From: an uncultured Gammaproteobacteria bacterium
GTDB lineage: Bacteria > Patescibacteriota > Patescibacteriia > CAYZDG01
Reading direction: 5' to 3'
DNA: 64,000 nt
NCBI GenBank assembly: GCA_964536515.1
Contig: CAZHXI010000001.1
Location: 31,480 to 95,479 of the forward strand
Shown: in pieces, positions 2,757 through 22,620 of the stretch
Layout: every line of letters begins with the position of its first letter
Position numbering within the stretch: position 1 is the first letter of the stretch
The notes under the pieces: model-generated
Told to the model about the DNA's origin: nothing
Database searches by the model: none
Seen by the model: only the letters and a program-made list of their open reading frames with translations
Position numbers and translations under genes: made by a program

Positions 2757-5700
2757 ATGGAGCGGCGACGATTGAGCGGCTTGATCCTGGGGACGCTGGT
2801 AGCAGCTGCACTGCTCGGCACAACCCTCATAGCTACGGTCAGCGTAGCCAGGCTGCGAGAGCGGGCGTTCGCCGCCGTTGGTTTCGGTGGAACTGGAGCA
2901 ATTCTGAAGACGATCACGCAGGGTTCCGGAGCCGCAATTGCCACGCCAGGATTCCCCGTCGTTGCAGACCCGGGTGTACGTACGCAGAACTTCTTAAGCT
3001 CGCTGGGCGATGCGATTGGCTCGGCGCTTGAGAGCAGCGGCAAGCTGCTGGTGAAGAATACGCTGTCGCGCTTCTTGGGTGAGCTGGCGCGCGGCACGGC
3101 GGAGTGGATTGCTACCGGCAGCCCGGGCCAGATGCCGCTGTTCGAGACGCAGGGTGGGTACGAGTTCATGGCGGCGACGCGTGACGCGGCTACCGCAGAG
3201 TTCCTAGATAGCCTGGGCAGCGCCTACGGCGTAGACGTGTGTAACCCCGAGCTCGGCGCCAAGCTGGTCATCCACTACAGCAGCCTGCCGTCTAGCCGTC
3301 TGGATACCCCCCGCTGCTCCCTGAAGCAAATTCAGGAGAACTGGGCTGAGCTGCTGCCGAATAACCAGGCCTTCCTGCAGCGGTTCAGCGCCGCACTGGA
3401 GCCAGACCAGAACGACCTGGGCATTGCGCTGACCCTGGAGAAGAAGCTGGTGGTAGAGCGCGAGACCAAGGCGAACGCCGCCATTCTGGAGCGGCTAGAG
3501 TCGCAGGGCCTCAAGCCCCTGAAGGACCTCGCCGGTAATATTGTGACCCCGGCGGCGGCGGTGAACGAGCAGATACGTCAGACCCTAGGCTTGAGCGCGC
3601 AGAAGGAGCTGTCGTTCATCGGCGACCCGGTGGCGGATGCCATTGGCATATTCACCAACACCCTGGGCAACAGGCTTCGAGAGAAGTGGCTGAAGCAGGG
3701 CTTCGTGAACATTGCCGACGTATTCAATCGCACCGGCAGCAGCGGCGGCCTGTTCGGCGGAGCCGGGCGCTACAGCGTGGCCGAGCCCCGGTTCGCTGCG
3801 CTGGCCGGTTTGGAGCTGGGAACCTCGGGATCAATCGACGTCGTCGGCGAGCTGTCTGCGTGCTCGGACCCCGCAGACCCGGGGTTCGGCAACCAGTGCG
3901 TGCTCGACCCCTCCTTCGCGCAGGCGGTGCAGCAGCAGCTGACGGTACGCGAGGCAATGGAGCGCGGCTTGCTACGGGGTGAGTGGGCGTTCGGCTACCT
4001 GCAGGACGGCAGCGAGCCTCGCTACGGCACCGGCTACCCGTACTCGGCAATGGTCGTCATGCGCACCAAGCGCATCGTTCCGGTCGGCTGGGAGCTGGCG
4101 GCGCAGGCAGCCAAGGCATTCGGGCAGGGCGTTACCTTGGACCACGTGCTGCACTGCTACGAAGATCCTGCGGCCGCCGGCGATGGATCGCGTCCGGTGG
4201 ACTGCCAGATTAACGGCATTAACCCGTTCTACCACCTGGTAGACCCCAACTGGCTGCTCAAGGTTCCGGCCACGTACTGCGTGCGGCGCGGCGCCAGCGC
4301 CGAGCTGCTAACCGAGGAGTACATCTGCAACCAGGACACGAACGGCGATAGCTTCGTGGACTGCGTGAACCTAGATTCGAACATCAACGGCATTGCCGCT
4401 CCGGTCGATGGGGATCCGAGCTCCAAGGATGAGTACCTCAGGGTGATCCAACGGGCCGAGTACTGCGCCGACGAGCAGAGCTGCATCGCCGAGAACGCCG
4501 ATGGTACCTGCCGCGCCTACGGCTACTGCTTCGAGGAGAAGCAGACCTTCAGCCTGGGGGACAATGCCTGCCCGTCGCAGTTCGCCTCGTGCGTGGGCGT
4601 AACCACGCCCAGCGGGCAGCAGACCGCCTACATCCAGGACAGCGTGCAGACCTGCCCCACCGGAGCCGCTGGCTGCCAGTGGTACAGCCGTCGCAAGAGC
4701 GGCGCCAACTGGAGCGTCGCCCCCACCGACCGCATCTACCTCAACTCCGAGGCGGCAACCTGCAGCCCCGACGACGCCGGCTGCCGCAAGCTGCTGCGCT
4801 TCGGCCAGGGCACCAACCTGGTACCCAACGGCGGCTTCGAACAGTACGACCGCCACCTGCCCAGCGATCCGAATGGCACAGATAACTTCTTCATCAACGG
4901 CGGCACGGCACGTGGACGGGCCTACACCAACGCGGCCGATGTGTACGAGGGGCAGGCATCGTTCCGCCTGACGCGGTCCGGTAGCATCAGCGTGCTGGCC
5001 GAAACGGGCAGCGAGGTAGCGGGCCGAACCTTTACCGCCTCGGTTGCCAGCAAGAACTGCACCGCCGGTTCGCTGTCGCTGCTGGACGGCGACGGGGGAG
5101 CCATTGGTGCTCCGGTCAACCTGCAGATTAGCGGGCCCGACACAGACAACGGCCAGTGGCACACCGCTACTATTACCGGCACCACGCAGGCGCCGGGCAC
5201 CAGCCTTACGGTGCAGGTTACCGGCCTCAATGCCTCGGTGGATTCCGACTGCCTGCTGGACTCGCTCGCCCTGACCGAGGGTTCGGCGAGGGCTACGCTG
5301 GCCTACGGCGCCGGACGTTCGGTGCACATTAGCAGCCGAGCCACGCAGTGCAGCCAGGACGACGTGGGCTGCCAGGCCTTCGTGCCGACGAGCGGCGACC
5401 CCACCGTGTTCGGCCGTATTACCGCCAACGATTACTGCCCGGCGCAGTGCGTGGGCTACCAGAACTACAGCCCCCTCATCAACACCTTCGAGGAGCGCGA
5501 GGGTGCGTCCGCCCCGGCGCCGTCTAACTTCATTCCCTCTACCGCACGCAGCTGCAGCGCCGTTGACGTGGGCTGCAGCGAGTTCACCAGCCTGGCAGAG
5601 GTGCCGGAAGGCGGCGAGCGGGTAGCCTACTTCAGCCAGGTGCAGCAGTGCGTGCCCGAGGCGACGCCGAGCGTGGGTACCTACTACACCTGGGAGGGCA

Positions 5701-8700
5701 GCGATACCGCCGGCTACCAGCTGCGCGTCTGGCAGCTGCTGCGTACCAATATCTCGGGGCCCCTGGCGCCGTGCACCAACCTCAGCTTAGACCCATCCAT
5801 TCAGCCGCCGGTCTGCTTGGATACGGCAGAAAACCGGGCGACCTGCGACCTGAATGCCGGTAACCCCGACTGCCGCGAGGTATTCGACTCCAATGCCACC
5901 AGCCACGGCGTGCTGTGGAGCCGCGTGGTGCAGGCGACGAACGACTGCCAGCAGTACCGTCGCACCGGCACCGACTTCGTGTACAACGTTTCGCCCCGAC
6001 TGGCGCGGCGCTGCCCGGCTGCGGCCAACGGCTGCCGCCAGTACCGCGGCGCCACCGGCGGCAACACCCGTACCGTTCTTCTGGCGGACTTCGAGACGTC
6101 ATCCGCCGCTGGCTGGGGCGGCACGCGCGTGGCGCTGACAACCGAGGCTCTGCAGGTCGGCGGGCACTCGCTGCTCGCTCTGGGCGCCAGCGGCAGCGTT
6201 ACGTTGCGCCGCACCGAGCCGCTAGCCATGCGTCCGGGCCACCAGTACATGCTCACCGTGTGGGTGAAGGGCTCAGACCGAGACATTCCGGCCGGCAACG
6301 TAACCCTACGCGGGGGCCTGCGCCGCCTGCTGGGCGCCCTGGGTGCAACCCCGGCGTCTGCCCAGCCCGGGCCTGCCGAGAACCTGGTATTCAACGCCGG
6401 GCCTACGCCCATCGGCGGCGAGTGGCAGAGGCTACAGATCGGGCCGGTTACGCCCACCACGCAGGCGAGCACCATGACGTTCGATATCACCGTGGCTATC
6501 GGCGGCCTTCGCAGCGCCTACTTCGACAACATCCAGCTGAAGGAGGTAACCAGCGATACGTTCGTGGTGCAGAACTCGTGGGAGACGCCGCAGGCCTGCG
6601 ATAACCCACCCGGCCTACCCAACGGCACCGACTCTAACCCCCGCACCGAGCCCGGCGCCATGGTGGGCTGCAGCGCCTACCGCGTGGCTGGCCGCCAGGT
6701 AACGCTGAGGTCTTTCAATCGGCTGTGCGCCGAGCGCAACGTGGGCTGCCAGGCGTTCATGGATACGGCGAACTCTGCCTCGCCGTTCGCCCAGCGTTTC
6801 AACTCAACCTGCAGCCTGGGCGCCCCCGTAGCCACGCCCACCGTCTGTAGCTCGGACGGGTACCAGCGCTGCGTGGTGGGAGCCGGCGAGGCGAGCTGCC
6901 GCTACACCCAGACCTCTGACTACGACCCCAGCTCTGCCGCGGAGCCGCTGGTAGCCGACGAAGACCAGGTGCCGGTGCTCGGCGACCGGGTTACCTACCT
7001 GGTAGACGACCCTGCGGCGTACTGCAGCGCCGAGGTAGCCGGCTGCACCCAGCTGGGCTTGCCCCGCATCAACAAGCAGGCGTGGTCTGGCAGCGGCGCA
7101 GCCCCGGCCAACGGCATCGTCAGCTGGCAGGACGTGTACAAGGTGGCGAACCCAGACCAGTTCAGCCGCAGCCTGTGCAGCGTCGGCCAGCTGTGGTGCG
7201 CGGCGCACCGCGTCTCGGGCGGCGGCACGCTTACCTTCCGCGACCCGCAGGGCAGCCTGGCGGGGGAGAGCCGTACCTGCGAGTACCGCACGGGCGTGCA
7301 GATTGGCAGCCAGCTGGTTACGGGCTGGTTCCGTACCGGCACCGACGACGGCTGCCGCGCCACGTCTAACTACAGCCTGCCGCTCAACGGCGGCCCGGGC
7401 TACGACCGCTTCGTGGGCATCTGCCCGGCGCAGTACAGCGGCTGCACCAACTACCGTAACCCGCAGCCCAGCGCCACCGGCGGCGAGCGCGACAACTACT
7501 TCCTGCGCAGCAGCGTAGATAGCAGCTCGTGCAACGGCCTGGTAGATGTGGCCGGCGGCTGCATGCTGTTCCGCGACCCAGCCCAGCCGGCGCTGTACAG
7601 CTCACAGTACAGCTACCCGCCCTACCGGCTGCCGGGCCAGGCGCCGGTAGCAACCTCGACGCTAGATAGCAACGTGGTCCTAAAGGTGCGGCGCGACCGC
7701 AGCTGCAGCCAGTGGTACAGCTGCGGCAGCAGCGTGGCCGTGCCCGGCAGCCCCACGGGGCAGCGGGTGTGCACGTCGCTCACCAGCTGCACGCGGCTGA
7801 ACCCCGCCACCAACCAGTGCGACAACCCCGGCGGCGGATCGTTCCCCGTCGGCAGCGCCGGCTTCCCCAACGAGTTCACCTTCGCCAGCCCGGATGACAG
7901 CACGCGGTGGCGTAACCTCTCCGGCTACACCGTACCCGGCATCCAGTTCACCGGCGGCCCGGGCCTGGTGAGCCGCGGCTTCACCCCCTACAGCAACATG
8001 GAGCAGATTGGGCTCTCCGCTACGGTCTCGAACGGCGGGTTCGACGACGCGGCAGACAGCCTAGCCTCCACCGACGGCGTGGGCTGGCATAGCTGCGACT
8101 CCGGCGCCCCGGCGGTACCGGCAGCGCAGGCTTGCAGCTACGTGGTTTCAGCCAACAGGGTTCGCGAGGGACGCGCGGCGCTGCGCTTCAGCTCTACGGT
8201 CGGCGCCGTAACCACCCTGCGGCACGGCGTCGTGGCCGTGGCTCCGAACTCTACGTACGCCGTCAGCGTGCAGCTGAACACCGTAGACCTGCTCGCCGGC
8301 GACGTGGCGCTCGAGGTGCTGGATGGCGGCGGCACGGTACAGCTGCGTCTGCAGCAGGGCTCGGGCCAGGGCTGGCAGACGCTGCTGGGGCAGTTCACCG
8401 CTACCGGCAGCGTTACCCTACGCCTGGTCGCCTCGGCTGATGCCAGCGGCAGCGCCTACGTAGACGACGTGAAGATCGAGCCGGTGCTGCAGGTGAACGG
8501 CGAGCCGCGCTTCGTGGGCCAGCAGTGCCGCGTCTACCCGCGCGGCGACGCACCGTCGTGCCGTTACACCCAGGCAGACGGCGAGTACCGGGGCATCACG
8601 GGCTACTGCCTGCAGCCCGACCCCCGCGACCCCAGCCGCTGCATCCAGTGGTGGCCGGTGGACGTGGTAGCCGGCCAGTCGTTCGACGTCTTCGGCGAGA

Positions 8701-10415
8701 CCATTAGCCTGAGCGGCCGTACGCCCCTGCGCTACTGCACCGAGGCTGCGGGAAACGCCTACGACGACAACCGCGATGGCACGAAAGAGTACTGGCGCGA
8801 TGCGGGGGTAGACGCGAATATTGATGGCGGCGGCACCGGCGGGGAGATAAGGGCTGCGTGCAACCCAGACCCCCTGGCGGCGTCGCCCTCTAGTACAGAT
8901 GATGGCTGCACGCTGGCTGAGATGAGCTCCGGGTGGGCGGTGGAGGAGCTTTCGGGTATGCACCTCTGGAACGTTCACTGGAGCCAGGTCGCCCGCATTG
9001 TGGCAGACGGCGACTACAACGCCTGCAATAAGCACTACTCCGTAATGCCAGAGCTACGTGAGTACACGTTCGAGATGCACGAGCCAACTAGGTCCGTTAC
9101 GCGTTTCGGCTTCTGGACAGACTGGCAGAACGACAGCGAGGGTGAGACCTGGGCTTTCTTCGGCGTCGACCGCGGCAGCGGACTCATCAACTACTTCATC
9201 GGCTACGTCAACGATACGGCGGGCAGCGGCGAGGACTGCACCGTGGACTTCAAGATCGTCACCAAGGAGCAGTGCTCGGTCGTCGCCGAGGTTCGGGCAG
9301 ACGATACGCACACGGCGTGGTTCGACCGTTTCAACGGCGGCACCTACTCCGACGCTAGCTTGGTCCCCGCCAACGATGCCGCTCCCTACGGCGCCCTGCC
9401 GGCTAACGCCGCTGCAGACCTGATGGGTGCCACCTGCGATCCCGATATCCTGGCAGCTTCGGACTCGCTGAGTATCGATGAGGGCTGCGCGTTGCCCATC
9501 GGCAAGTTCGCCCTGCGGGCCAACGGCTCGCAGGCCGAGCGCGGCGGCACGCCGCTGGCCTGTCCCGTGGGCGGGTGCGCCGTGCCGCAGTGCACCCTCG
9601 ACCGAGCCAACAGCTGCGGCACCGCTGGCCAGACTACCGCCTGCTTCGATGCACTGGCTACGCCGGGAATCGGCTTCTGCTCCGGCAACCAGGTGCCCAG
9701 CGCAGCGAACGAGGGAACCAGGGTCGAGGGCGCCGTGCGCCTATCGCAGATGTTCGCCCGCAGCTACTACACCTGGACCCTAGACCCCGCCACCCACCGC
9801 TACCGCATCAACGACTGCCTTAACGACGATACGATTCAGGTAGCCATTGCCGCATCCCCCACCGGGGTAGACTCCGGCAGCGGTTGCTGGGACAGGCGCA
9901 AGCTGCTATCCACGCCAGATCCTGCCCCCACCACGCTCCGCCCGCGGGTACCCGAGATTAGCATCAACGGCAATTCCAGCGACACGCCCGAGGTGGCAGC
10001 CAGCGTGGGCGATACTGTGGAGCTGCGCTTCAGCTCGCTGCTGAACGCCGACCGCCTGCCGCTGCGCTTCATCCTGGTTGACTGGGGCGACGGCGAGCGG
10101 ACCGTTACCTCGCGGCTGAGCATCAACCACCAGCCGTCCGTGGCTAGCGGCCACCTGTTCACGCACACCTACTCTACCCGGCCGACCACGACCTGTGGGT
10201 CCGACTTCTGCGCCACCATTCGGGTGCAGATCGAGGACAACTGGGGCTTCTGCAACGGCGCACTCCCTGCGACGAGCTACAATATCAACAATGGCAACAT
10301 GAGCCTCAACCAGAGTGGCGCCGGCTGCTTCATTGGGAACGCCACCGATAGCCTCCGCTGGACCAGGGCAACCACTACCCTCCGCTTCTCCACCGCGGTA
10401 GAGGAAGACGTCTAG
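2757..10415 (+). CDS. Giant (2552 aa) Cys-rich cell-surface protein with CBM-like beta-sandwich modules and a C-terminal PKD-like domain
   Basis: N-terminal TM/signal (LILGTLVAAALLGTTLIATVSVA). More than 10 repeats of C-x(8-15)-[DN]-x-x-G-C-[QRST]-x-[FYL], e.g. DDAGCRKLL, DDVGCQAFVP, VDVGCSEFTS, RNVGCQAFMD. Three NGGFE/NGGFD-type carbohydrate-binding-like modules. VDWGDGE PKD-like motif near the C-terminus. Confidence 0.7.
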   Translation: MERRRLSGLILGTLVAAALLGTTLIATVSVARLRERAFAAVGFGGTGAILKTITQGSGAAIATPGFPVVADPGVRTQNFLSSLGDAIGSALESSGKLLVKNTLSRFLGELARGTAEWIATGSPGQMPLFETQGGYEFMAATRDAATAEFLDSLGSAYGVDVCNPELGAKLVIHYSSLPSSRLDTPRCSLKQIQENWAELLPNNQAFLQRFSAALEPDQNDLGIALTLEKKLVVERETKANAAILERLESQGLKPLKDLAGNIVTPAAAVNEQIRQTLGLSAQKELSFIGDPVADAIGIFTNTLGNRLREKWLKQGFVNIADVFNRTGSSGGLFGGAGRYSVAEPRFAALAGLELGTSGSIDVVGELSACSDPADPGFGNQCVLDPSFAQAVQQQLTVREAMERGLLRGEWAFGYLQDGSEPRYGTGYPYSAMVVMRTKRIVPVGWELAAQAAKAFGQGVTLDHVLHCYEDPAAAGDGSRPVDCQINGINPFYHLVDPNWLLKVPATYCVRRGASAELLTEEYICNQDTNGDSFVDCVNLDSNINGIAAPVDGDPSSKDEYLRVIQRAEYCADEQSCIAENADGTCRAYGYCFEEKQTFSLGDNACPSQFASCVGVTTPSGQQTAYIQDSVQTCPTGAAGCQWYSRRKSGANWSVAPTDRIYLNSEAATCSPDDAGCRKLLRFGQGTNLVPNGGFEQYDRHLPSDPNGTDNFFINGGTARGRAYTNAADVYEGQASFRLTRSGSISVLAETGSEVAGRTFTASVASKNCTAGSLSLLDGDGGAIGAPVNLQISGPDTDNGQWHTATITGTTQAPGTSLTVQVTGLNASVDSDCLLDSLALTEGSARATLAYGAGRSVHISSRATQCSQDDVGCQAFVPTSGDPTVFGRITANDYCPAQCVGYQNYSPLINTFEEREGASAPAPSNFIPSTARSCSAVDVGCSEFTSLAEVPEGGERVAYFSQVQQCVPEATPSVGTYYTWEGSDTAGYQLRVWQLLRTNISGPLAPCTNLSLDPSIQPPVCLDTAENRATCDLNAGNPDCREVFDSNATSHGVLWSRVVQATNDCQQYRRTGTDFVYNVSPRLARRCPAAANGCRQYRGATGGNTRTVLLADFETSSAAGWGGTRVALTTEALQVGGHSLLALGASGSVTLRRTEPLAMRPGHQYMLTVWVKGSDRDIPAGNVTLRGGLRRLLGALGATPASAQPGPAENLVFNAGPTPIGGEWQRLQIGPVTPTTQASTMTFDITVAIGGLRSAYFDNIQLKEVTSDTFVVQNSWETPQACDNPPGLPNGTDSNPRTEPGAMVGCSAYRVAGRQVTLRSFNRLCAERNVGCQAFMDTANSASPFAQRFNSTCSLGAPVATPTVCSSDGYQRCVVGAGEASCRYTQTSDYDPSSAAEPLVADEDQVPVLGDRVTYLVDDPAAYCSAEVAGCTQLGLPRINKQAWSGSGAAPANGIVSWQDVYKVANPDQFSRSLCSVGQLWCAAHRVSGGGTLTFRDPQGSLAGESRTCEYRTGVQIGSQLVTGWFRTGTDDGCRATSNYSLPLNGGPGYDRFVGICPAQYSGCTNYRNPQPSATGGERDNYFLRSSVDSSSCNGLVDVAGGCMLFRDPAQPALYSSQYSYPPYRLPGQAPVATSTLDSNVVLKVRRDRSCSQWYSCGSSVAVPGSPTGQRVCTSLTSCTRLNPATNQCDNPGGGSFPVGSAGFPNEFTFASPDDSTRWRNLSGYTVPGIQFTGGPGLVSRGFTPYSNMEQIGLSATVSNGGFDDAADSLASTDGVGWHSCDSGAPAVPAAQACSYVVSANRVREGRAALRFSSTVGAVTTLRHGVVAVAPNSTYAVSVQLNTVDLLAGDVALEVLDGGGTVQLRLQQGSGQGWQTLLGQFTATGSVTLRLVASADASGSAYVDDVKIEPVLQVNGEPRFVGQQCRVYPRGDAPSCRYTQADGEYRGITGYCLQPDPRDPSRCIQWWPVDVVAGQSFDVFGETISLSGRTPLRYCTEAAGNAYDDNRDGTKEYWRDAGVDANIDGGGTGGEIRAACNPDPLAASPSSTDDGCTLAEMSSGWAVEELSGMHLWNVHWSQVARIVADGDYNACNKHYSVMPELREYTFEMHEPTRSVTRFGFWTDWQNDSEGETWAFFGVDRGSGLINYFIGYVNDTAGSGEDCTVDFKIVTKEQCSVVAEVRADDTHTAWFDRFNGGTYSDASLVPANDAAPYGALPANAAADLMGATCDPDILAASDSLSIDEGCALPIGKFALRANGSQAERGGTPLACPVGGCAVPQCTLDRANSCGTAGQTTACFDALATPGIGFCSGNQVPSAANEGTRVEGAVRLSQMFARSYYTWTLDPATHRYRINDCLNDDTIQVAIAASPTGVDSGSGCWDRRKLLSTPDPAPTTLRPRVPEISINGNSSDTPEVAASVGDTVELRFSSLLNADRLPLRFILVDWGDGERTVTSRLSINHQPSVASGHLFTHTYSTRPTTTCGSDFCATIRVQIEDNWGFCNGALPATSYNINNGNMSLNQSGAGCFIGNATDSLRWTRATTTLRFSTAVEEDV

Positions 10416-10418
10416 GAT

Positions 10419-13400
10419 ATGCTTCGTCTGCCATTGAATTTCAGCTCACCTCGCTTCGCCCGAGGCGTCGCGGTTGCGATGCTGGCCCTGGTCGCTATCG
10501 TAGCTGTGCCGGTGGCGTTGCCGGGCGGGGGAGTGAGCGATTCGGCGCCGGTGCGGTCGGCGATCGGCGTAGCTACGGTGCACGCGGTTACCGATACTGA
10601 TATTCAGATGCAGGCCGAAGCCAGGGAGGCAGCGGCGAACAAGACCGATAGTGACTCGTGGTTCACCCGGGTCATCAAGGAGCTGATGTACGCCATTATC
10701 CAGTTCTTCGGCTACATGACCGGGCTGCTGTTCAAGGTGCTAGAGATGATTGCCCAGTACAACGGGTTCACCACCGAGCCGATCGTGGTGAAGGGCTGGA
10801 CCATAGTCCGGGACGTCTGCAACATGTTCTTCGTCTTCGCCATGCTGCTCATTGCCTTCGGCACCATACTGCGCATCCAGGCCTACCACTACCGCAGCCT
10901 GCTGTTCAAGGTCGTGCTGATGGCGGTGCTCATGAACCTTTCTAAGTCTATCGTCGGCGTGCTCATAGACCTTTCGCAGATCGTAATGCTTTCGTTCGTG
11001 AGCGGGTTCAAGCACATGGTGGCGGGCAGCCTGGCCCAGGCCTTTGGCGTGGATAAGATACTAAGGTTGGTACCAACTGACTCCGGCACTAACGCTGTTA
11101 CCGCTGGGCAGGTGAACGATGCTCTGGGCGCAACCGGCGGCGACGGCGTGGTTGCCAGCGCGGGTACGCTGCTGGCGTCGTTCATTCTGGCTGCGCTCAT
11201 CATGGCTCTCATCTTCATTACCGTTCTAGCCATTACGGTGCAGCTCATAGTACGTGTGATAAAGCTATGGATTCTCACCATCATGGCGCCCATCGCCTTC
11301 GCCGGAACCCTGTTCAAGGGCCTGGGCTCAATGGCCGGCAAGTGGTGGGACGAGCTGACCAAGGAGCTGGTGGCCGGCCCCACGCTGATGTTCTTCCTCT
11401 GGCTGGTGCTGGCTATTAGCTCGGCTAACAGCGGCGAGGTGTTCGGCGCCGGCAGCCATGCGGCCGGCTCGTTCAACCCGCTGAACCTGGAGGCTGCCAG
11501 CGCCGGGAACCTAGTGAACCTGTTCGTGGTAGTGGGCTTGCTGTGGGCCGGCTTGGGAGCAGCCAAGGCGGGCGGTACCGCCGCCGCAGGCGCGGTAGGC
11601 TTCGGCCTGGGCAAGCTATCGAGCATCAGCCGCGGCTCTGCTCGCCTGGCGGGGAAGGGGGCAGCGGGCGTGGGCCGCTTCGGCCAGCGCTGGGCTGCGC
11701 AGGGCCTGTCTAAGAGCGGTATCCAGGCGCGCTACGAGATGGCCAAGGAAGGCATTCGAGAGTCTACCGCTGGCAAAGCGGTGCGCTTCTTTGGCAAGGA
11801 GGCTACCGAGCAGCGTTGGGCTGCCCGTAAGGCGATACGTCGGGAGCGCATTCTGACGCACATGGATACCGCGGCGAAGTCCGCAGACCTCGCGGGCCAG
11901 CCGATTGGGTGGATTCAGTCTGCCCGCCGTAAGCGTGAGCAAAAGTGGCGCGTCGAGTCTAACGTGGCTACCGCCAAGTACATGAAGGAGCTAGACGAGC
12001 AGGGGATCAACGACAATGCCAGCATTAGGGCGGCGCTGGCTTCCAATATGAAGGACGGCAAGGTGCAGAACGTAGATAAGCAGGCGGCGCTGCTGCGCCA
12101 GCTGGCGAGCAAGGGCAAGGTTCTGGATGCTAATCGCGACATTATCGAGAACACGGCGGGTATGTCGGATGGCTCCCGTGCCGCGCTGCTCGCTGCCTTC
12201 AAGGACCACGACACCAGCGCCATTAAGAGCGACGGCAGCATCCGTTCCGACGCCGAGGTAATGGAGGAGATGGAGTCGGCCATGAAGGGCGACGCCGATC
12301 GCGGCGCCAAGAACAAGAGGGTACGCGGCATTGCTGCCAAGGTCCGTGTGGACGAGAGGGGCCAGGTTGCCAACTCGACAGCCATCGCGACCCTCCGCAA
12401 CCTGGATGAGGACTACATTGAGCCGCTCGATAAGAAGCTGAAGGACGATATTAAGGGGGCTATCCTGCTGACGATCCACAACGCCAACCAGAGTGGCGAC
12501 ACCCAGCTGCGGGATGAAATGGAGAAGAAGTACAATCAGCTGTTCGCCCAGGGAACCGACAAGCAGGGCAACGCCCTCCCCAAGCTTGAGCTAGACAAGG
12601 ATACCGGACAGGTGAAGGACGACGCCATGCGTGCCGTGCAGCAGAAGGCTGCACGCAAGCAGGAGCGTGACCAGATCAAGGAGGTCAGCATGAAGCGTGA
12701 TAGCCTGGTACCCCTAGATGAGGGCGAGAAGGCGCTGCAGAAGCTGGTAGCCGCCATTGATGGCGCTCCAAAGAAAATTGAAGAGCTAAGGACTAAACTT
12801 GCGGAGCTATCAACCATCGACACGTCAACGAAGGCGGGACGTGGTTGGCATAAGCAGGCTACCATCGACGTAGCTCGCATACAGAAGGAGCTCGTCGACG
12901 GCGCTGAAAAACAAACAAAGGATGAGAATGGAAATCGAAAACCTGAGTTTGTCTACCGTGGCAACGACGGCTCGGTGATCGATCCTGGCGTCCTAGTCAA
13001 TCGAATGCTTGGTGGTAACCTTGAGTCTAGGCTCGATGCTGTCCGTGAGGATGTAGCTTGGAGCAGGGCTCAGCCCGATGATTCTAAGCGTCTCGCGTCT
13101 GATCAATTGCAGGTAATCTCTGCTCGATTCAACCGCATTCATAAGGTGGCTCCCCCGAAGGGTCCAGCATCGGCAGGTAGCCCGTCAGGTCGAGCGACTG
13201 ATACAAGGTACCTCGCCGGAGAGTTCGTCCAGCCACGGCAGGCGGTGAGTAGCATCGCCGATCCTTTGGTCAGTAAGGCACAGGGGGCGGTGAGGCAGGC
13301 ATTCCAGCAGATCGATCAGGGCCAGCGCGTAGCGAAGCTGGAGCCGGTGCTTAAGGAGGTGCAGGGTGCGATAAAGCAGATGCTGACTATTGATAAGCTC

Positions 13401-13535
13401 GACGAGGTTCAGAAGGGTGCGCTCACCGATATAGCAAAGGAGGCTGAAGATCTGAGCGGCAAGCTCGCTACCGCATCCGAGGCGGATGTATCAGCGATTG
13501 TCACCAAGATCAGCAAGCTGAAGAACCTAGCCTAG
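10419..13535 (+). CDS. VirB6/TrbL-like polytopic membrane protein with a ~600 aa charged coiled-coil-like C-terminal extension
   Basis: Signal/TM, then 6 or more hydrophobic helices (FFVFAMLLIAFGTIL, LIMALIFITVLAITVQLIV, etc.), then a long K/E/D/A-rich hydrophilic tail. Immediately follows the giant protein (stop, 3 nt, ATG). Confidence 0.55.
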   Translation: MLRLPLNFSSPRFARGVAVAMLALVAIVAVPVALPGGGVSDSAPVRSAIGVATVHAVTDTDIQMQAEAREAAANKTDSDSWFTRVIKELMYAIIQFFGYMTGLLFKVLEMIAQYNGFTTEPIVVKGWTIVRDVCNMFFVFAMLLIAFGTILRIQAYHYRSLLFKVVLMAVLMNLSKSIVGVLIDLSQIVMLSFVSGFKHMVAGSLAQAFGVDKILRLVPTDSGTNAVTAGQVNDALGATGGDGVVASAGTLLASFILAALIMALIFITVLAITVQLIVRVIKLWILTIMAPIAFAGTLFKGLGSMAGKWWDELTKELVAGPTLMFFLWLVLAISSANSGEVFGAGSHAAGSFNPLNLEAASAGNLVNLFVVVGLLWAGLGAAKAGGTAAAGAVGFGLGKLSSISRGSARLAGKGAAGVGRFGQRWAAQGLSKSGIQARYEMAKEGIRESTAGKAVRFFGKEATEQRWAARKAIRRERILTHMDTAAKSADLAGQPIGWIQSARRKREQKWRVESNVATAKYMKELDEQGINDNASIRAALASNMKDGKVQNVDKQAALLRQLASKGKVLDANRDIIENTAGMSDGSRAALLAAFKDHDTSAIKSDGSIRSDAEVMEEMESAMKGDADRGAKNKRVRGIAAKVRVDERGQVANSTAIATLRNLDEDYIEPLDKKLKDDIKGAILLTIHNANQSGDTQLRDEMEKKYNQLFAQGTDKQGNALPKLELDKDTGQVKDDAMRAVQQKAARKQERDQIKEVSMKRDSLVPLDEGEKALQKLVAAIDGAPKKIEELRTKLAELSTIDTSTKAGRGWHKQATIDVARIQKELVDGAEKQTKDENGNRKPEFVYRGNDGSVIDPGVLVNRMLGGNLESRLDAVREDVAWSRAQPDDSKRLASDQLQVISARFNRIHKVAPPKGPASAGSPSGRATDTRYLAGEFVQPRQAVSSIADPLVSKAQGAVRQAFQQIDQGQRVAKLEPVLKEVQGAIKQMLTIDKLDEVQKGALTDIAKEAEDLSGKLATASEADVSAIVTKISKLKNLA

Positions 13536-13536
13536 T

Positions 13537-14340
13537 ATGTCCGTAGACCGCGCCACCGTAGATGCTGCCCGAGCTGCCGCCGCCAGCGCCATTGCCGCGG
13601 CAGGGGTAGACGAGTCGCAGCGTGCCGCTGCGGCCGCGGCTTGCGATACGGTGCTGTGGGGCATTACCCCGTACGCCGAGCTGGCCAGCTACCTGCAGGA
13701 GGCAGCCAAGCTGCCGCCGCCCGTAGCCGAGGCTCTGGCTAGGCGGCTGGATGTCTCCGCTAAGCCAGCCTGGGAGCAGGTTTGGGCGGGCCTAGACCAG
13801 CAGCAGCGCCACTGGAACAAGCAGGACCTCTCCGAAGACTACGCTAGCTTCGCCGCAGACCTAGACGCCGAGGTGGCCGAGGCGGCGCCGGAGCTGGCGC
13901 AGCAGCCTTCGGTTACGCCGCTGCTAGCCGAGCTGCTGGACGGCGGCGACAGGTACGACGCCACGGCGCTGCTAGCCTGGCTGGCGCAGCAGGGTAGGCT
14001 CGTGGGCGTGTGCATGCAGGACCGTGACATTCGTGAGGACTTCACCGAGTGGGTTACGGGCGCTCTGGGCGGGGGACAGGGCAAGCCCGCCATCGTCATT
14101 CCGGGGCCAGACCAGTGGAGCGCTCCGCTGACGGCGCTGCTGCTGCAGTACCTGCTGGAGGTGCGGCTGGGCTGGAACGCCGAGCAGTCTGCCATGGCCG
14201 CCATGTACCTGGCGCAGCAGCTGGCCAAGGCCAGCGGCGAGCACCGCTACGCTACCGCCGTGTACGGCGACGAGGCTACGGGCGAATTCCGCTGGCGGCC
14301 GGTGCGGCTGGAGAACGGCCAGGTCGTGTTCGCGGATTGA
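13537..14340 (+). CDS. Hypothetical acidic Ala-rich protein (secretion-locus associated)
   Basis: 267 aa ORF starting 1 nt after the previous stop. No recognisable motifs. Confidence 0.45.
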   Translation: MSVDRATVDAARAAAASAIAAAGVDESQRAAAAAACDTVLWGITPYAELASYLQEAAKLPPPVAEALARRLDVSAKPAWEQVWAGLDQQQRHWNKQDLSEDYASFAADLDAEVAEAAPELAQQPSVTPLLAELLDGGDRYDATALLAWLAQQGRLVGVCMQDRDIREDFTEWVTGALGGGQGKPAIVIPGPDQWSAPLTALLLQYLLEVRLGWNAEQSAMAAMYLAQQLAKASGEHRYATAVYGDEATGEFRWRPVRLENGQVVFAD

Positions 14341-17909: not shown

Positions 17910-19004
17910 ATGCCTACCGAGAATGCCGCGAAAGAGCAGCCGGCGAGCGTGGCGCCCGCGTCATCGCTGGGCGTGGTCGTGAGGGGCAGCGACGGCAGCT
18001 TCCGCGTGTGGCAGGACGGCGAGTGGCGGCTGCTGGCCGCGGCTCCCGTGGTAGCGGCGCCGTCTAAGCCGACGTTCGGCGGCCCCAATGCCGCTAGCTA
18101 CTTCAGCGCAGCCGACGAGCAGGAGGCCCGCCGCCTAGCCCAGCGCCTAGATACCGCTCCCGAGCACAAGCGCTACTCCCTCGCGAAGATTATTGGGCAG
18201 GTGCAGGAGAGGGCTAAGGTGAGCATTGCCGGGCCTGCGGCGGACGCCTTCCGCCGTGCCGTGCTCACCTTCCTGCGGGGTACCCGGGGGCCGGTAGACT
18301 TCGGCGCCGTGCTGGTGCGTCCGGCTGACCAGGGCGGCGTGGGGCTGACGTCCGCTGAGTCGCAGGCGCTGGTGGCAATACTCTCCGTCATAGGCGACAA
18401 GGTCCGCGCCGAGGGCGGCGAGGTGGTGGATGACCCGGCGTTGAATCCGCCGGCCGCGGCGCCCGTGCCGCCGAAGCCGTCGGTCAAACCCGACGTAGAG
18501 ACGAGGCGCGCCTCGTCTCTACCGCCCGCGTCACCAACCCCCGTCGCACCCGTGCCGCCGCGGCCGATTGCGCCCCCTCTGCCCCGTCCCGCGGTTCCCC
18601 TGACGCCGCTCGCCAAGCCCCAGGCGGTGAACGACGTTCGTCCGGCTGCTCCAGCCGCGCGGGTAGCTCCACCCCGCCGCCTGGTTGGGCCGGTGGACGA
18701 GCTCCGCCAGATGGACATTGCCACCTTCCGTACGCTCGGCGCTACGCCGGCAGACCAGGCGAACGCCGTCGTGGCCAAGGTGCAGGCGCTCGGCCGGGAG
18801 TCGCTCACCCGGCACGCCGAGGGCCTGGCAGCCTGGCGTGAGTGCCCCGTGTACACCGCGTACCGCGCCATCGGCCTGCAGAGCATCCAGGGGGGCAAGC
18901 CCGTGGCCCAGGTCGTCGCCGAGCTGTTCCGTGACGGCAAGGCTACGCTGACCGAGGCTGAGTTCAACGCCGTGGCCGACGCCAACCGCCGGCTTCGCCT
19001 CTAG
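17910..19004 (+). CDS. Hypothetical protein with a central Pro-rich linker (secretion-locus associated)
   Basis: 364 aa; PAPVPPKPSVKP…PVAPVPPRPIAPPLPRPAVPLTPLAKP linker. Contains an in-frame copy of the palindromic repeat (encodes DVETRRASSLPP). Confidence 0.5.
   Translation: MPTENAAKEQPASVAPASSLGVVVRGSDGSFRVWQDGEWRLLAAAPVVAAPSKPTFGGPNAASYFSAADEQEARRLAQRLDTAPEHKRYSLAKIIGQVQERAKVSIAGPAADAFRRAVLTFLRGTRGPVDFGAVLVRPADQGGVGLTSAESQALVAILSVIGDKVRAEGGEVVDDPALNPPAAAPVPPKPSVKPDVETRRASSLPPASPTPVAPVPPRPIAPPLPRPAVPLTPLAKPQAVNDVRPAAPAARVAPPRRLVGPVDELRQMDIATFRTLGATPADQANAVVAKVQALGRESLTRHAEGLAAWRECPVYTAYRAIGLQSIQGGKPVAQVVAELFRDGKATLTEAEFNAVADANRRLRL
18495..18522. repeat. Palindromic repeat family copy 4, located inside a CDS
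   Basis: GTAGAGACGAGGCGCGCCTCGTCTCTAC, a 28-nt perfect palindrome within the Pro-rich linker of the 17910..19004 ORF. Confidence 0.7.
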
Positions 19005-19009
19005 CGCAT

Positions 19010-19483
19010 ATGGCCCAGCTGCAGCACTTCGTCGTCCCCCAGTTCATAGATATCGAGAGCAAGATTCTGGGGCCCATTACCACCCGGCAGTTCCTGTGGG
19101 TGCTGGGCGCCGGGCTCATTTTCTTCATCGCCCTGCGCACGCTGCCGGTGCCGGCCTTCATTGCCGTAGCGGTGCTGGATGTAGCCGTGTTCGGCAGCTT
19201 CGCCTTCGTGAAGGTGAACGGCCAGCTCTTCCATAACTTCCTGGTCAGCGCCATTGCCTTCGGGCGGCGGCCGAGGCTGTACCTATGGACCGCCGGGGTA
19301 GAGGATGACGGAGTTTCCGTTGCCGCCGTCAGCCCGGCGGAGGCGGTGGGCCAGCGTCCGCTGATTCCCGCCGGCAGGCTGAACGAGCTGGCGCTGCTGG
19401 TAGACACCGGCGGCACCTACCAGGCCGTGACCGCATTCAAGGAAATACCGCCTATCCCCGAAGACCATGTCCCCCAAGCCTAA
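19010..19483 (+). CDS. Small two-TM membrane protein, PrgI/VirB3-like position upstream of VirB4
   Basis: 157 aa; hydrophobic hairpin FLWVLGAGLIFFIALRTLPVPAFIAVAVLDVAVFGSFAFV. Gene-order analogy to Gram-positive T4SS (PrgI then PrgJ). Confidence 0.45.
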   Translation: MAQLQHFVVPQFIDIESKILGPITTRQFLWVLGAGLIFFIALRTLPVPAFIAVAVLDVAVFGSFAFVKVNGQLFHNFLVSAIAFGRRPRLYLWTAGVEDDGVSVAAVSPAEAVGQRPLIPAGRLNELALLVDTGGTYQAVTAFKEIPPIPEDHVPQA

Positions 19484-20141
19484 GCTAAAGAGGGCTCCTG
19501 CTGCCGCCGCGCTGCCGTTCTCGTACCTGCGCGAGGGCAGCGTCATCATGCGAGACGGCAGCCTGCGCGCGGTGCTGCTGGCGTCGTCCATAAACTTCTA
19601 CCTGAAGTCTGAGACCGAGCAGAACGCTATCGTCAGCGGCTACATCGGCTTCCTCAACACGCTCAGCTTCCCGCTGCAGATCGTCATTCAGTCGCGCCGG
19701 CTGAACATAGACGGCTACCTGGCGCAGCTCGAGACTCTGGAGCGGCAGCAGACCAACGAGCTGCTGCGGCTGCAGACGGCAGACTACCGGCAGTTCGTTA
19801 AGGAGCTTCTGGAGCTGGAGGATATTATGACCAAGCGCTTCTACGTGGTCGTGCCCTACGACCCGGCGGGGGATAAGACGCGCGGCTTCATCAGCCGGCT
19901 GACATCTGCCTTCTCGGCGCCGGCTGCGGTGGCGCTGCGCGAGGAGAAGTTCCGTCGGGCCTCGGAGGAGCTATCCAAGCGGGTGGCGCTGGTGCAGAGC
20001 GGCCTGGGCCAGATCGGCATAACCACGGCGGCGCTCGACACCCCCAGCTTGATAGAGCTGTACTACCGAACCTACAACCAGGAGGTAGCCGACGTGCAGC
20101 CGCTGTCGGCCGTCGGTAAGCTGCAGGTAGATGCTTCGTAG
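19467..20141 (+). CDS. Hypothetical protein, possibly the N-terminal domain of a split VirB4-like ATPase
   Basis: 224 aa; overlaps the upstream gene by 17 nt and the downstream VirB4-like gene by 11 nt out of frame. Combined 224+637 aa approximates full-length VirB4 size. Confidence 0.45.
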   Translation: MSPKPKLKRAPAAAALPFSYLREGSVIMRDGSLRAVLLASSINFYLKSETEQNAIVSGYIGFLNTLSFPLQIVIQSRRLNIDGYLAQLETLERQQTNELLRLQTADYRQFVKELLELEDIMTKRFYVVVPYDPAGDKTRGFISRLTSAFSAPAAVALREEKFRRASEELSKRVALVQSGLGQIGITTAALDTPSLIELYYRTYNQEVADVQPLSAVGKLQVDAS

Positions 20142-22056: not shown

Positions 22057-22620
22057 ATGGACCGCCGCCGCATGGTGATCATCTCCGGAGCAGCCCTGCT
22101 CGCCATCGTCGCCGTGGTGCTGTGGCTGGTGCTCCGGGGTAGCCCGACCACGCCTCCGCCGGCTGGAGTAACGCCCACGACCACGCCAGAGGATACCTCC
22201 AATCTGCCGCCGCCGGTCAGCACGCCGACGACCCCCGAGCCCGACCGGACCGGGGCGGTGGTAGCGGCACGCGTCTGGGCCGAGCGGTTCGCCAGCTGGT
22301 CTAACGAGGATGGCTTCACCAACCTGCAGCAGCTGGGTAGCCAGTCGACCGCCCAGGTTCAGTCTTTCCTGGCCACCTACCGCCAGCAGCTGCAGCAGCG
22401 GTACCCGGTGGCCGATGGCTACCGCGGCGTAACCGGCCGGGCGCTCTCGCCCAAGCTAGACGCCTTCGATGCAGGCGCCGGCACGGCCCAGGTGAGCGTG
22501 GCCATGCAGCTGGCCGAGAGCACGTCTACATCGCCCACGGTGTACAACCGTACGCTGGACTTACGCCTGCTGCGCAGCGGCGAGGCGTGGCTGGTGGACT
22601 ACGTGAAGTGGGAGGAGTAA
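22057..22620 (+). CDS. Membrane-anchored protein (N-terminal TM, Pro/Thr linker, ~120 aa globular domain); VirB8-like role is speculative
   Basis: MVIISGAALLAIVAVVLWLVL TM, then PTTPPPAGVTPTTTPEDTS linker. Confidence 0.4.
   Translation: MDRRRMVIISGAALLAIVAVVLWLVLRGSPTTPPPAGVTPTTTPEDTSNLPPPVSTPTTPEPDRTGAVVAARVWAERFASWSNEDGFTNLQQLGSQSTAQVQSFLATYRQQLQQRYPVADGYRGVTGRALSPKLDAFDAGAGTAQVSVAMQLAESTSTSPTVYNRTLDLRLLRSGEAWLVDYVKWEE

Follow-up and report, generated by a model that had tools for sequence, protein, structure and literature searches.

What does a membrane subunit of a type IV secretion system (T4SS) do with a charged tail of ~640 residues, and why does this tail differ so sharply between strains? 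A gene in a 64-kb stretch of patescibacterial DNA (64,000 nucleotides, called the window below) raises this question. Patescibacteria account for a very large share of bacterial diversity, most of it uncultured. Their T4SS is essential for growth on a host in the one species tested, and a 2024 review describes its role as "completely unknown" (PMC11665869, PMC12102498). In S. epibionticum, virB6 itself is essential (PMC12102498).

The membrane domain and its T4SS locus

The reading frame of the gene is intact (Table 1); one database copy of the protein (P0001) has 1018 residues, with its start 60 nt further downstream. A homology search returned 34 close homologues. On the Kyte–Doolittle scale, hydrophobic segments were found at residues 10–41, 127–156, 160–197, 242–299, 315–336 and 357–386 and none past residue 386, and 33 homologues show the same pattern. 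The hydrophobic N-terminal bundle described in the original prediction is thus present, with six segments in the first 386 residues.

Table 1. Features of the VirB6-family gene and its surroundings, in window coordinates
Feature	Coordinates	Strand	Basis
Giant 2552-aa Cys-rich protein, directly upstream	2757..10415	+	Syntenic partner in close relatives
Extended VirB6-family gene, whole	10419..13535	+	1038 aa; ORF listing
N-terminal signal-anchor-like helix, aa 11-28, basic N-terminus ahead	10449..10502	+	Hydropathy; AlphaFold2 helix 11-28
Variable, mostly disordered N-terminal segment, aa 29-79	10503..10655	+	pLDDT <50 at 29-61
Conserved hydrophobic domain with predicted VirB6 fold, aa ~80-400	10656..11618	+	pLDDT 85-95 over most of domain; Foldseek
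Predicted disordered Gly/Ala/Lys/Arg-rich linker, aa 401-459	11619..11795	+	pLDDT <50 at 388-460
Hypervariable block, sharply delimited in comparison with L005, the closest syntenic genome	11650..13495	+	Nucleotide identity
Predicted all-α hydrophilic tail, aa 460-1038, short-helix bundles and few β-hairpins	11796..13532	+	
267-aa soluble acidic protein, directly downstream	13537..14340	+	Conserved; syntenic in L003, L005, L007, L008
364-aa "pre-PrgI" protein of the T4SS cluster	17910..19004	+	Homologous to 455-aa protein of L001, E 4e-20
PrgI (VirB3-like)	19010..19483	+	Pfam PF12666, E 4.3e-9
TrsD/TraC-like protein, related to N-terminal part of VirB4	19467..20141	+	NCBIfam TrsD, VirB4_plasma
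VirB4-like ATPase	20131..22044	+	NCBIfam conju_CD1110; Pfam P-loop_TraG
165-aa protein, hydrophobic stretches in C-terminal half	22587..23084	+	Read from sequence

The assignment of this N-terminal domain to VirB6/TrbL also holds, by way of fold, synteny and sub-threshold profile matches only. When the full AlphaFold2 model was searched with Foldseek, five of the top eight matches were TrwI/VirB6 chains of R388 (7o3v_F, 7o3v_J, 7o3v_G, 8rtd_L and 8rt9_F), with probabilities of 0.96–1.00 and target-normalized TM-scores of 0.41–0.53 over 304–322 aligned columns, at E values of only ~0.1. Residues ~80–400 form a highly conserved hydrophobic domain with a predicted VirB6/TrwI fold; W127, R131, N135, D184, R279, W284, P291, W309, G320 and P321 are among the positions invariant across 146 sequences. 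Regarding sequence profiles, the window protein matched no Pfam family at E ≤ 1 and no NCBIfam model at E ≤ 0.01, and it did not reach the gathering score of a curated VirB6/TrbL profile (PF04610 or NCBIfam VirB6). TrbL (PF04610) is the only recurrent Pfam family among the relatives, found below threshold in six of 54 at E ≤ 0.01 (best E 1.1e-5); in P0187, for example, it scores 24.9 bits (E 2e-5) against a gathering score of 25.9. Another relative, P0201, is named "type IV secretion system protein" by NCBI. A profile of the membrane domain retrieved nothing from the PDB sequences at E ≤ 10, and a tblastn search of the domain against 72,556 plasmids gave no match. An hhalign comparison of the family profile with a single pCF10 sequence, taken as PrgH from its position just upstream of PrgI, returned a probability of 0.45% and an E value of 0.13.

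The VirB6-family gene is linked to PrgI/VirB3, TrsD and VirB4. These three genes lie 5.5–6.6 kb beyond the end of the gene in the window, and in four other genomes (L001, L012, L013 and L014) the VirB6 homologue shares one same-strand gene run with PrgI, the TraC-like gene and VirB4. The VirB4-like ATPase matches conju_CD1110 with an E value of 6.9e-98 and 328.8 bits (cut-off 325), and orthologues of the TrsD/TraC-like protein carry PF26593. A 545-aa protein of L013 occupies the same position as the "pre-PrgI" protein, just upstream of PrgI, and is hypervariable over its N-terminal ~225 residues; on visual inspection, a shared C-terminal motif suggests that the two are related. The 165-aa protein is similar (E 6e-6) to the product of a 204-aa gene directly upstream of the L001 VirB6 homologue and is possibly a VirB2-like pilin. 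The 267-aa downstream protein matched no family in Pfam, NCBIfam and PHROGs scans, and no relaxase or coupling-protein gene was found among the ORFs scanned across the 64-kb window. VirB6 homologues near virB4 have been found in a published survey of Patescibacteria (PMC12102498).

Composition, predicted fold and family distribution of the tail

The ~640-residue tail is highly charged and poor in aromatic residues, as originally described. Residues 400–1038 contain K 9.5, R 7.7, D 8.0, E 6.4 and A 13.5%, so that 31.6% are charged, with a net charge of +18; F+W+Y amount to 3.2% versus 9.4% in the N-terminal 399 residues. The lysine content compares with 1.3–8.7% in neighboring proteins of the window. 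The peptide KKLKDDIKG...YNQLF begins at residue 672 of the 1038-aa protein. GC3 is 0.70 in the tail against 0.80–0.90; a foreign origin of the tail was considered on this ground and set aside, as the difference is modest, common to all high-GC relatives and not decisive.

The AlphaFold2 model predicts ~25 helices in the tail, the longest of 31 residues, and a few short β-hairpins. Mean pLDDT is 72.5 for the full-length protein and 73.8 for the tail alone, and most 10-residue blocks of the tail reach 70–93. In the model, an all-α tail of ~580 residues, built of short-helix bundles, thus follows a disordered basic linker. The net charge is +11 over residues 401–500, and this is part of a wider pattern: in 145 proteins, the 40 residues after the last hydrophobic helix contain a median of six K+R and one D+E, and the 25 residues before it one K+R and three D+E. 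The description of the tail as coiled-coil-like did not stand, because the 3.5-residue heptad periodicity is weak along most of it, except around residues 765–820, and the predicted helices do not exceed 31 residues. A coiled-coil stalk protein was rejected on the same evidence, the lack of long uninterrupted helices and the weak heptad power. The stalk or channel extension suggested in the original prediction may or may not hold. A structure search with the tail matched generic helical bundles only, Pfam, NCBIfam and PHROGs scans of the tail or the whole protein gave no family, and the best match of a tail profile among PDB sequences had an E value of 0.16. A match of the tail to an unrelated enzyme family would have spoken against the original prediction; sequence, profile and fold searches returned none. 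Within the tail, Tandem Repeats Finder reported only a 19-nt array and self-BLAST found no internal repeats.

A profile of the membrane domain retrieved 25,120 representative clusters. Tails of more than 300 residues are present in 139 of 145 representative relatives, with a median of 569 residues, K+R of 17% and D+E of 14%. The charged tail is a family trait and not a chance feature. Given the great size of the family and the presence of the tail in nearly all sampled members, the window protein is an "extended VirB6" of the published Patescibacteria T4SS; the original placement among such proteins was right and agrees with the literature (PMC12857230, PMC12102498). The VirB6 subunit of this system almost always carries a tail of ~570 residues, predicted to be folded. 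Profiles available so far fail to detect the window protein and most of the relatives scanned, and the new profile is better suited to annotating VirB6 in patescibacterial genomes.

The tails are simple and alike in composition across the family and cannot be aligned beyond close relatives, even by iterated profile. With the tail alone as query, a homology search returned nothing beyond the identical protein and one close relative, and a five-round iterated HMM over 205 family members remained at seven sequences. No conserved C-terminal motif or end was found across the family. The hairpin motif x-x-G-x-[VIL] is enriched in the window tail (six observed versus 1.5 expected) and not in the wider family (ratio 1.04).

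Strain-level variability of the tail

Compared with L005, the closest syntenic genome, nucleotide identity drops from 79–92% to 31–55% at position ~11650 and returns to at least 80% at ~13495. The tail is 32% identical to its L005 counterpart at the amino-acid level, versus 75–96% for 12 flanking genes. Its dN of 0.79 and dS of 1.49 compare with background values of 0.03–0.14 and 0.42–0.65, so that dN in the tail exceeds even dS in the background. The tail is 75% identical to that of L007, a genome more distant than L005 in most flanking genes and on a par with it in EF-P; the similarity pattern of the tail is thus incongruent with most flanking genes. The same contrast is found in two other lineages. 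The flanks of L001 and L012 are 96–100% identical in nucleotides and their tails 18–82% identical in amino acids per 40-residue block; between L013 and L014 the values are 99–100% and 20–60%. At the nucleotide level, tails share 39–58% identity between strains with flanks that are 99–100% identical. These comparisons show the tail to be a hypervariable module with sharp boundaries, and its exchange between strains to be independent of the genes on either side. In three independent lineages, it is the chief strain-variable segment of the locus. All compared genes are intact except that of L008, which is broken at a run of X in the translation, taken as an assembly gap.

Across the family, where two membrane domains are 80–90% identical, the tails share a median identity of 42%, and one pair is reversed (81% in the membrane domain, 96% in the tail); these statistics carry a bias, because proteins with high overall similarity are merged in the databases. 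Tail and downstream gene vary together in two lineages; the downstream product is soluble, and only its first ~200 residues vary. At the hydropathy threshold used, no hydrophobic segment was seen in these co-varying downstream proteins, and hence no signal peptide is evident. No such co-variation is found in the window lineage, where the 267-aa downstream protein is 90% identical to its L005 copy at a tail identity of 32%.

Two further blocks of the locus vary as well. The C-terminal part of the giant Cys-rich protein (nt ~8650–9800) is a second hypervariable block, and at the variable N-terminal segment of the VirB6-family protein nucleotide identity to L005 is 31% in the 300-nt interval from nt 10409, versus 76–88% in both adjoining intervals. 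Silent tail cassettes that could serve as gene-conversion donors were not found elsewhere in the 64-kb window. Diversity-generating retroelements act by adenine-specific mutagenesis. Such an element was rejected as the source of variation, because the divergence includes indels over ~1.8 kb, unlike that type of mutagenesis; a weak Avd-like gene is present only in L013, 2 kb upstream of the homologue. The class of extended VirB6 proteins is already published, and what is new here is the strain-level hypervariability of the tail. This is its most informative property, and the original prediction, made from one sequence, had missed it.

Role of the tail and comparison with known systems

We favor the reading that the window protein is the VirB6-family membrane subunit of a chromosomal, monoderm-type T4SS of the Patescibacteria type, with the tail as its specificity module, preferably cytoplasmic, and assign it a probability of roughly 0.55. 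The conserved domain would form the membrane platform of the translocon, probably as a pentamer like TrwI/VirB6 in R388, and the tail would bind a strain-specific partner. In the preferred placement, five tails on the cytoplasmic face would make up a docking platform beside TrsD/VirB4, where cargo or adaptor proteins would be selected; the soluble, co-varying protein encoded just downstream would be among the partners in some lineages. Selection, diversifying or frequency-dependent, would maintain divergent alleles, and homologous recombination through the conserved flanks would move them. The cytoplasmic placement is suggested by the net-positive membrane-proximal linker, following the positive-inside rule, and by co-varying downstream proteins with no evident signal peptide; for A. 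tumefaciens VirB6, reporter fusions showed a cytoplasmic C terminus (as cited in PMC7648143).

The tails may instead lie outside the cytoplasmic membrane, a serious if less probable alternative. Five tails would then extend a stalk through the cell wall, or serve as an adhesin or as the tip that touches the host. They might replace VirB5, which according to one review is not normally found in Gram-positive systems (PMC12857230), or be cleaved and delivered to the host, and their hypervariability would stem from an arms race with host surfaces or from adaptation to them. In R388 TrwI/VirB6, helices α1 and α2 alone lie in the membrane, and the remainder makes up a periplasmic dome (PMC9259494), so that with such a topology the positive-inside rule may not apply and the C-terminal extension would start outside. 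Strains of Anaplasma differ in the C-terminal extensions of VirB6-3 and VirB6-4 (PMC3556328, PMC7648143), and extended VirB6 tails of Anaplasma are reported to be trypsin-accessible on intact cells (PMC7648143). Within the locus, the other hypervariable blocks, the N-terminal segment of the protein and the C-terminal part of the giant Cys-rich protein, are plausibly extracellular, and tails differ sharply between strains with 96–100% identical flanks. Strain-level hypervariability is more typical of exposed proteins. However, the membrane-proximal linker is strongly net positive family-wide, the tail co-varies in two lineages with a soluble protein lacking an evident signal peptide, structure searches of the tail found no VirB5-like or adhesin fold, and a rod-like stalk would need longer helices than those predicted. 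In another reading, the tail has no specific partner and is a spacer or "ballast" under weak constraint, diverging through relaxed selection only. This would agree with tails that resist alignment even by iterated profile, with their simple, shared composition and with the lack of conserved motifs or C-terminal ends. We consider it improbable, as tail length is maintained (median 569 residues, >300 in 139 of 145), the compared genes are intact apart from the presumed gap in L008, and the predicted fold is confident, with most 10-residue blocks at pLDDT 70–93. Moreover, dN in the tail (0.79) exceeds the neutral divergence of the flanks (dS 0.42–0.65), its similarity pattern conflicts with most flanking genes, and drift cannot produce 39–58% nucleotide identity beside flanks that are 99–100% identical.

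The layout also recalls polymorphic toxins or effectors, in which a variable domain is mounted on a conserved delivery domain next to an immunity or partner gene: the N-terminal part is conserved, the C-terminal part is variable within sharp bounds, and in two lineages the variability enters the next gene. One of 54 relatives has a weak Peptidase_C58 match (E 7e-4), counting matches anywhere in the protein. No toxin or enzyme family or fold was found in the window tail, though, and divergent tails are homologous over their whole length and are thus not unrelated cassettes. Variation in the downstream gene is confined to its first ~200 residues, and the gene is 90% conserved in the window lineage; a tail of this kind is present in almost every sampled member of what is an essential core component of the T4SS. 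The window protein therefore shows no variable toxin domain with a co-varying immunity gene, and this explanation appears very unlikely.

Returning to the tail as a specificity module, we tentatively propose, with more doubt than conviction, that the hypervariable tail determines the partner or host specificity of the patescibacterial T4SS and that its alleles are kept by frequency-dependent selection and shuffled by recombination. The product of the next gene would contribute its first ~200 residues to this determinant in some lineages. If so, the tail type would predict which host or cargo an epibiont strain can use, and a hydrophilic domain of an extended VirB6 would gain its first functional role in a monoderm system. 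Reviews give the function of these domains as not known (PMC12857230). The variability of the tail offers a concrete, testable handle on T4SS specificity.

Compared with R388 TrwI (PDB 7O3V, 8RTD) and A. tumefaciens Ti VirB6, the window protein has a similar multi-helix hydrophobic domain of ~300 residues with, by prediction, the same fold, and its gene is likewise linked to VirB3-like and VirB4 genes. It differs from both in having no significant Pfam or NCBIfam sequence match, in belonging to a chromosomal monoderm system with no relaxase or coupling-protein gene found in the 64-kb window, and in being three times as long, because the linker and the 580-residue tail are added. As in extended VirB6 proteins, a large C-terminal hydrophilic region is added to the VirB6 hydrophobic domain. 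TcpH, ConG and Orf15 are Gram-positive MPF_FA examples of this class. Its published members include Rickettsiales paralogues (Anaplasma VirB6-3 and VirB6-4) and TraG of the F plasmid and SXT, and Gram-positive MPF_FA homologues, with Orf15 of Tn916 named, are given as 700–900 residues long (PMC12857230, PMC7648143, PMC3556328). The window protein is not of the F/SXT TraG type: that type combines the TraG N-terminal domain with a C-terminal domain for mating-pair stabilization and entry exclusion, and the TraG N-terminal model is excluded as a match, like any other, by the absence of Pfam families at E ≤ 1. In both the Anaplasma proteins and the window protein, the extension is the strain-variable part. 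However, the VirB6-4 extension of Anaplasma consists of tandem repeats, whereas the window tail has none and varies by whole-allele exchange rather than by repeat number; the window tail is also predicted to be folded, in contrast to extended VirB6 extensions described as "unstructured". Regarding the Patescibacteria, the survey of Quinonero-Coronel et al. (2025; PMC12102498) found 480 VirB6 homologues through existing profiles, compared with 25,120 representative clusters here; it reports them as scarce or absent in some classes, and its accessible text makes no mention of a C-terminal extension or its variability. The T4SS VirB6 described there and by Wang et al. (2023, as cited there) belongs to the same phylum-level system as the window protein, with which it shares the neighbors PrgI, TrsD and VirB4 and a chromosomal location (PMC12102498).

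Architecture and fold of the VirB6-like protein

The target gene is an intact open reading frame of 1038 residues; it starts 4 nt past the stop codon of the gene for a giant Cys-rich protein, and a 267-residue reading frame lies directly 3′ of it. The start codon is ambiguous: the database copy P0001 (1018 residues) starts 60 nt downstream, at 10479, whereas the ATG at 10419 yields a basic N-terminus, as in homologues of 1036–1037 residues. Six hydrophobic segments are found by hydropathy, all within residues 10–386 and none beyond. From residue 400 onward, 31.6% of the residues are charged (K 9.5, R 7.7, D 8.0 and E 6.4%), Ala accounts for 13.5% and aromatics for just 3.2%, and the net charge is +18; the peptide quoted in the original prediction begins at residue 672. 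Thus, the two-part architecture is real, and the polytopic front and charged, aromatic-poor tail proposed there are borne out by hydropathy and composition. The N-terminal hydrophobic bundle is present, and the C-terminal region matches no known enzyme family. The description of the tail as coiled-coil-like does not hold, with weak power at a 3.5-residue period across most of the tail and no helix above 31 residues in the AlphaFold2 model.

No Pfam (E ≤ 1) or NCBIfam (E ≤ 0.01) model was matched by the window protein, and the membrane domain gave no match as a profile against PDB sequences or by tblastn against 72,556 plasmids; thus, curated sequence resources do not place the protein in VirB6. 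The full-length AlphaFold2 model has a mean pLDDT of 72.5, with 85–95 across most of residues 90–340, and its eight top Foldseek matches include five TrwI/VirB6 chains of the R388 type IV secretion system (T4SS; probability 0.96–1.00, target-normalised TM-score 0.41–0.53, 304–322 aligned columns). Among 54 individually scanned relatives, TrbL/VirB6 (PF04610) is the sole family matched more than once, in six proteins with a best E of 1.1e-5; the relative P0187 scores 24.9 bits, below the gathering score of 25.9, and P0201 carries the NCBI name 'type IV secretion system protein'. For Patescibacteria, the literature describes a T4SS of monoderm type that is encoded on the chromosome and has VirB6 homologues close to virB4; virB6 of this system is essential in S. 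epibionticum (PMC12102498). Fold, a weak but consistent sequence signal, neighbourhood and literature agree in identifying the N-terminal domain as VirB6.

In the same model, residues 388–460 form a disordered linker rich in Gly, Ala, Lys and Arg (pLDDT below 50), and residues 460–1038 are predicted to be helical, with pLDDT 70–93 in most 10-residue blocks. The tail comprises about 25 predicted helices, the longest of 31 residues, and a few short β-hairpins. Foldseek returned only low-probability helical-repeat proteins for it, Pfam, NCBIfam, PHROGs and PDB sequences gave no match, and it contains no tandem or internal repeats. A short motif, polar-polar-G-x-[V/I/L], occurs six times (residues 545, 564, 604, 646, 728 and 849) against 1.5 expected, a count reached in 8 of 2000 shuffles. 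All sites except residue 564 (five of six) lie in or adjoin a short predicted hairpin, and the motif is kept in close relatives without enrichment in the wider family.

The membrane-domain profile, searched against 1.84 billion cluster representatives, retrieved 25,120 proteins at E ≤ 1e-3 and 10,197 at E ≤ 1e-30. Tail statistics were taken from the 145 best representatives (median length 569 residues; K+R 17%, D+E 14%, F+W+Y 5%). A tail longer than 300 residues is present in 139 of these, so the extension is the rule in the VirB6 family of the target. The named relatives are chiefly Patescibacteria groups, e.g. Falkowbacteria, Magasanikbacteria, Uhrbacteria and Moranbacteria, and four are labelled otherwise, e.g. 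Clostridiales, Planctomycetota and Spirochaetota. Since existing profiles gave a published survey just 480 VirB6 homologues (PMC12102498), this family is probably under-annotated.

The T4SS neighbourhood

In the window, as in its close relatives, a block of EF-P, S18, SSB, S6 and methyltransferase genes lies between the target and the PrgI–VirB4 genes; in the more distant homologous loci L001, L012, L013 and L014, the homologue, PrgI, the TraC-like protein and VirB4 form a single same-strand run. VirB4 function is split over the TrsD/TraC-like protein and the ATPase, whose genes share an 11-nt overlap, and this arrangement is identical in every relative examined. The 165-residue protein is similar (E 6e-6) to a 204-residue product that L001 encodes immediately 5′ of its VirB6 homologue, and may be a VirB2-like pilin. 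The 361-residue protein also has a weak VanY-like match (residues 214–294) and a Cys-rich C-terminal half; if real, it would be an unusual pilin–peptidase fusion. In some Patescibacteria, T4SS genes are reported in the literature to lie close to the replication origin.

The gene order MFS, RrnaAD, TSP3 protein, giant protein, VirB6, ~260-residue protein and EF-P is common to the window (1–23000) and the homologous locus L003, and these related genomes differ very strongly in base composition (GC3 ~0.85 vs ~0.33). The contig of L008 and L011 (CAYZDG010000001.1), titled 'uncultured Gammaproteobacteria bacterium', has the same Patescibacteria-type locus, and its taxonomic label is probably wrong; the VirB6 gene in this assembly is broken at a translated run of X, taken as an assembly gap.

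Features of the target locus and of homologous loci (window positions unless a locus is named)
Feature	Position	Strand	Remarks
Giant Cys-rich protein, 2552 aa	2757-10415	+	
Target ORF	10419..13535	+	intact, 1038 aa
PrgI, TrsD/TraC-like and VirB4 genes	19010-22044		PrgI is VirB3-like
TrsD/TraC-like protein, 224 aa	19467-20141		
VirB4 ATPase, 637 aa	20131-22044		
165-aa ORF	22587-23084	+	hydrophobic stretches in C-terminal half (read from printed sequence)
361-aa protein	24280-25365	+	weak T4SS_pilin match (PF18895, E 1.9e-4), residues 75-136
ParB gene	34197-35069		
Large surface-type protein, 1700 aa	56771-61873		fn3/Ig-like domains
Divergent tract extending into next gene	L001 12798-13400		
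Divergent tract extending into next gene	L013 6237-6876		
23S_rRNA_IVP / Avd-like gene, 120 aa	L013 1303-1665		weak match; 2 kb upstream of VirB6 homologue

Variation of the tail

Iterating a tail profile for five rounds against 205 family members detected tail similarity in six close relatives only. The window was compared with the nearest syntenic genome, L005 (GCA_964589475.1). Twelve flanking genes show 75–96% protein identity (VirB4 96, TrsD-like protein 95, S6 95, EF-P 94 and the 267-residue neighbour 90%), and the VirB6 membrane domain is 90% identical against 32% for the tail. In the DNA, identity drops from 79–92% to 31–55% at about nt 11650, within the linker, and climbs back to at least 80% near nt 13495, shortly 5′ of the stop codon. 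The Nei–Gojobori values are dS 0.42–0.65 and dN 0.03–0.14 for the background, and dN 0.79 and dS 1.49 for the tail; thus, at non-synonymous sites the tail has diverged by more than the neutral distance seen in its own flanks. With L007 the window tail shares 75% identity; most flanking genes of L007 are farther from the window than those of L005 (EF-P is the exception, 94.1 vs 93.6%), and the L005 tail groups with that of L008 at 50% identity.

The pairs L001/L012 and L013/L014 are independent replications of this pattern. Between L001 and L012, the flanks (96–100%, DNA) and membrane domain (95–100%, protein) contrast with tail blocks of 18–82%; between L013 and L014, the flanks are 99–100% and the tail blocks 20–60% identical. 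For either pair, divergence does not end at the VirB6 stop codon but extends through the first ~200–225 residues encoded by the next gene, past which identity is abruptly 90–100% again. These alignments suggest that the soluble downstream product in these lineages is a co-varying partner of the tail. Among family pairs with 80–90% membrane-domain identity, the median for the tail is 42%, and one pair is inverted (membrane domain 81%, tail 96%); these statistics are biased because databases collapse overall-similar proteins, a bias of which the flank-controlled comparisons are free. Nucleotide identities of 40–50% inside otherwise 99–100% identical loci are beyond point mutation; judged by these identities, the tails must have been exchanged by recombination or retained as old alleles. 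The window holds no silent donor cassettes for the tail.

Hypervariability also affects the first ~100 residues of the target (a signal-anchor helix and a disordered segment), with 31% nucleotide identity to L005 over nt 10409–10700, so the conserved core of the protein has variable regions on either side. The giant Cys-rich protein is syntenic with the target in close relatives, and its C-terminal part (nt ~8650–9800) is likewise hypervariable relative to L005, forming a second such block with 47–57% nucleotide identity vs 67–88% over the remainder of the gene. A diversity-generating retroelement was considered at L013, where an Avd-like match occurs, and the divergence pattern does not fit one.

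Location of the tail and relation to known systems

The analysis establishes a VirB6-fold domain, linkage to a T4SS, a helical tail predicted to be folded behind a flexible linker, and allele-like tail exchange. The conserved VirB6 domain, with PrgI, TrsD and VirB4, would form the central membrane platform, and the tail would bind a strain-variable partner and thereby set specificity. With the tail inside the cell, cargo or an adaptor would be this partner; with the tail outside, it would be the host surface.

The evidence on location conflicts. In 145 proteins, the 25 residues preceding the last hydrophobic helix contain a median of 1 K+R and 3 D+E, and the 40 residues past it 6 K+R and 1 D+E; both were counted for the cytoplasm. 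At the hydropathy threshold applied, the co-varying downstream proteins of L001/L012 and L013/L014 lack hydrophobic segments and hence show no evident signal peptide, which was counted likewise, and in A. tumefaciens, VirB6 has a cytoplasmic C terminus according to reporter fusions (as cited in PMC7648143). A tail outside the cell would agree with the R388 structure, where TrwI/VirB6 has just helices α1 and α2 in the membrane, its remainder forming a periplasmic dome (PMC9259494), and with the extended VirB6 tails of Anaplasma, which vary by strain and are trypsin-accessible (PMC3556328, PMC7648143). An extracellular position is also plausible for the other hypervariable blocks of the locus, at the N-terminus of the target (~100 residues) and in the C-terminal part of the giant protein. 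We favour a cytoplasmic docking platform only slightly, with a probability of about 0.55, and regard an external tail as somewhat less probable.

The two-part architecture by itself is of moderate interest; the hypervariability of the tail adds to it because the function of the essential Patescibacteria T4SS is an open question (PMC11665869). The target is an 'extended VirB6' within this published system, for which the passages searched in PMC12102498 make no mention of a VirB6 extension or its variability. Extended VirB6 proteins are a recognised class whose extensions are unexplained in function (PMC12857230). The target tail is without similarity to the extensions of TraG and the Rickettsiales. 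Compared with the described extended VirB6 proteins, it is non-repetitive, predicted to be folded and all-α, the extension is near-universal in a very large family, and the tail varies through whole-allele exchange.
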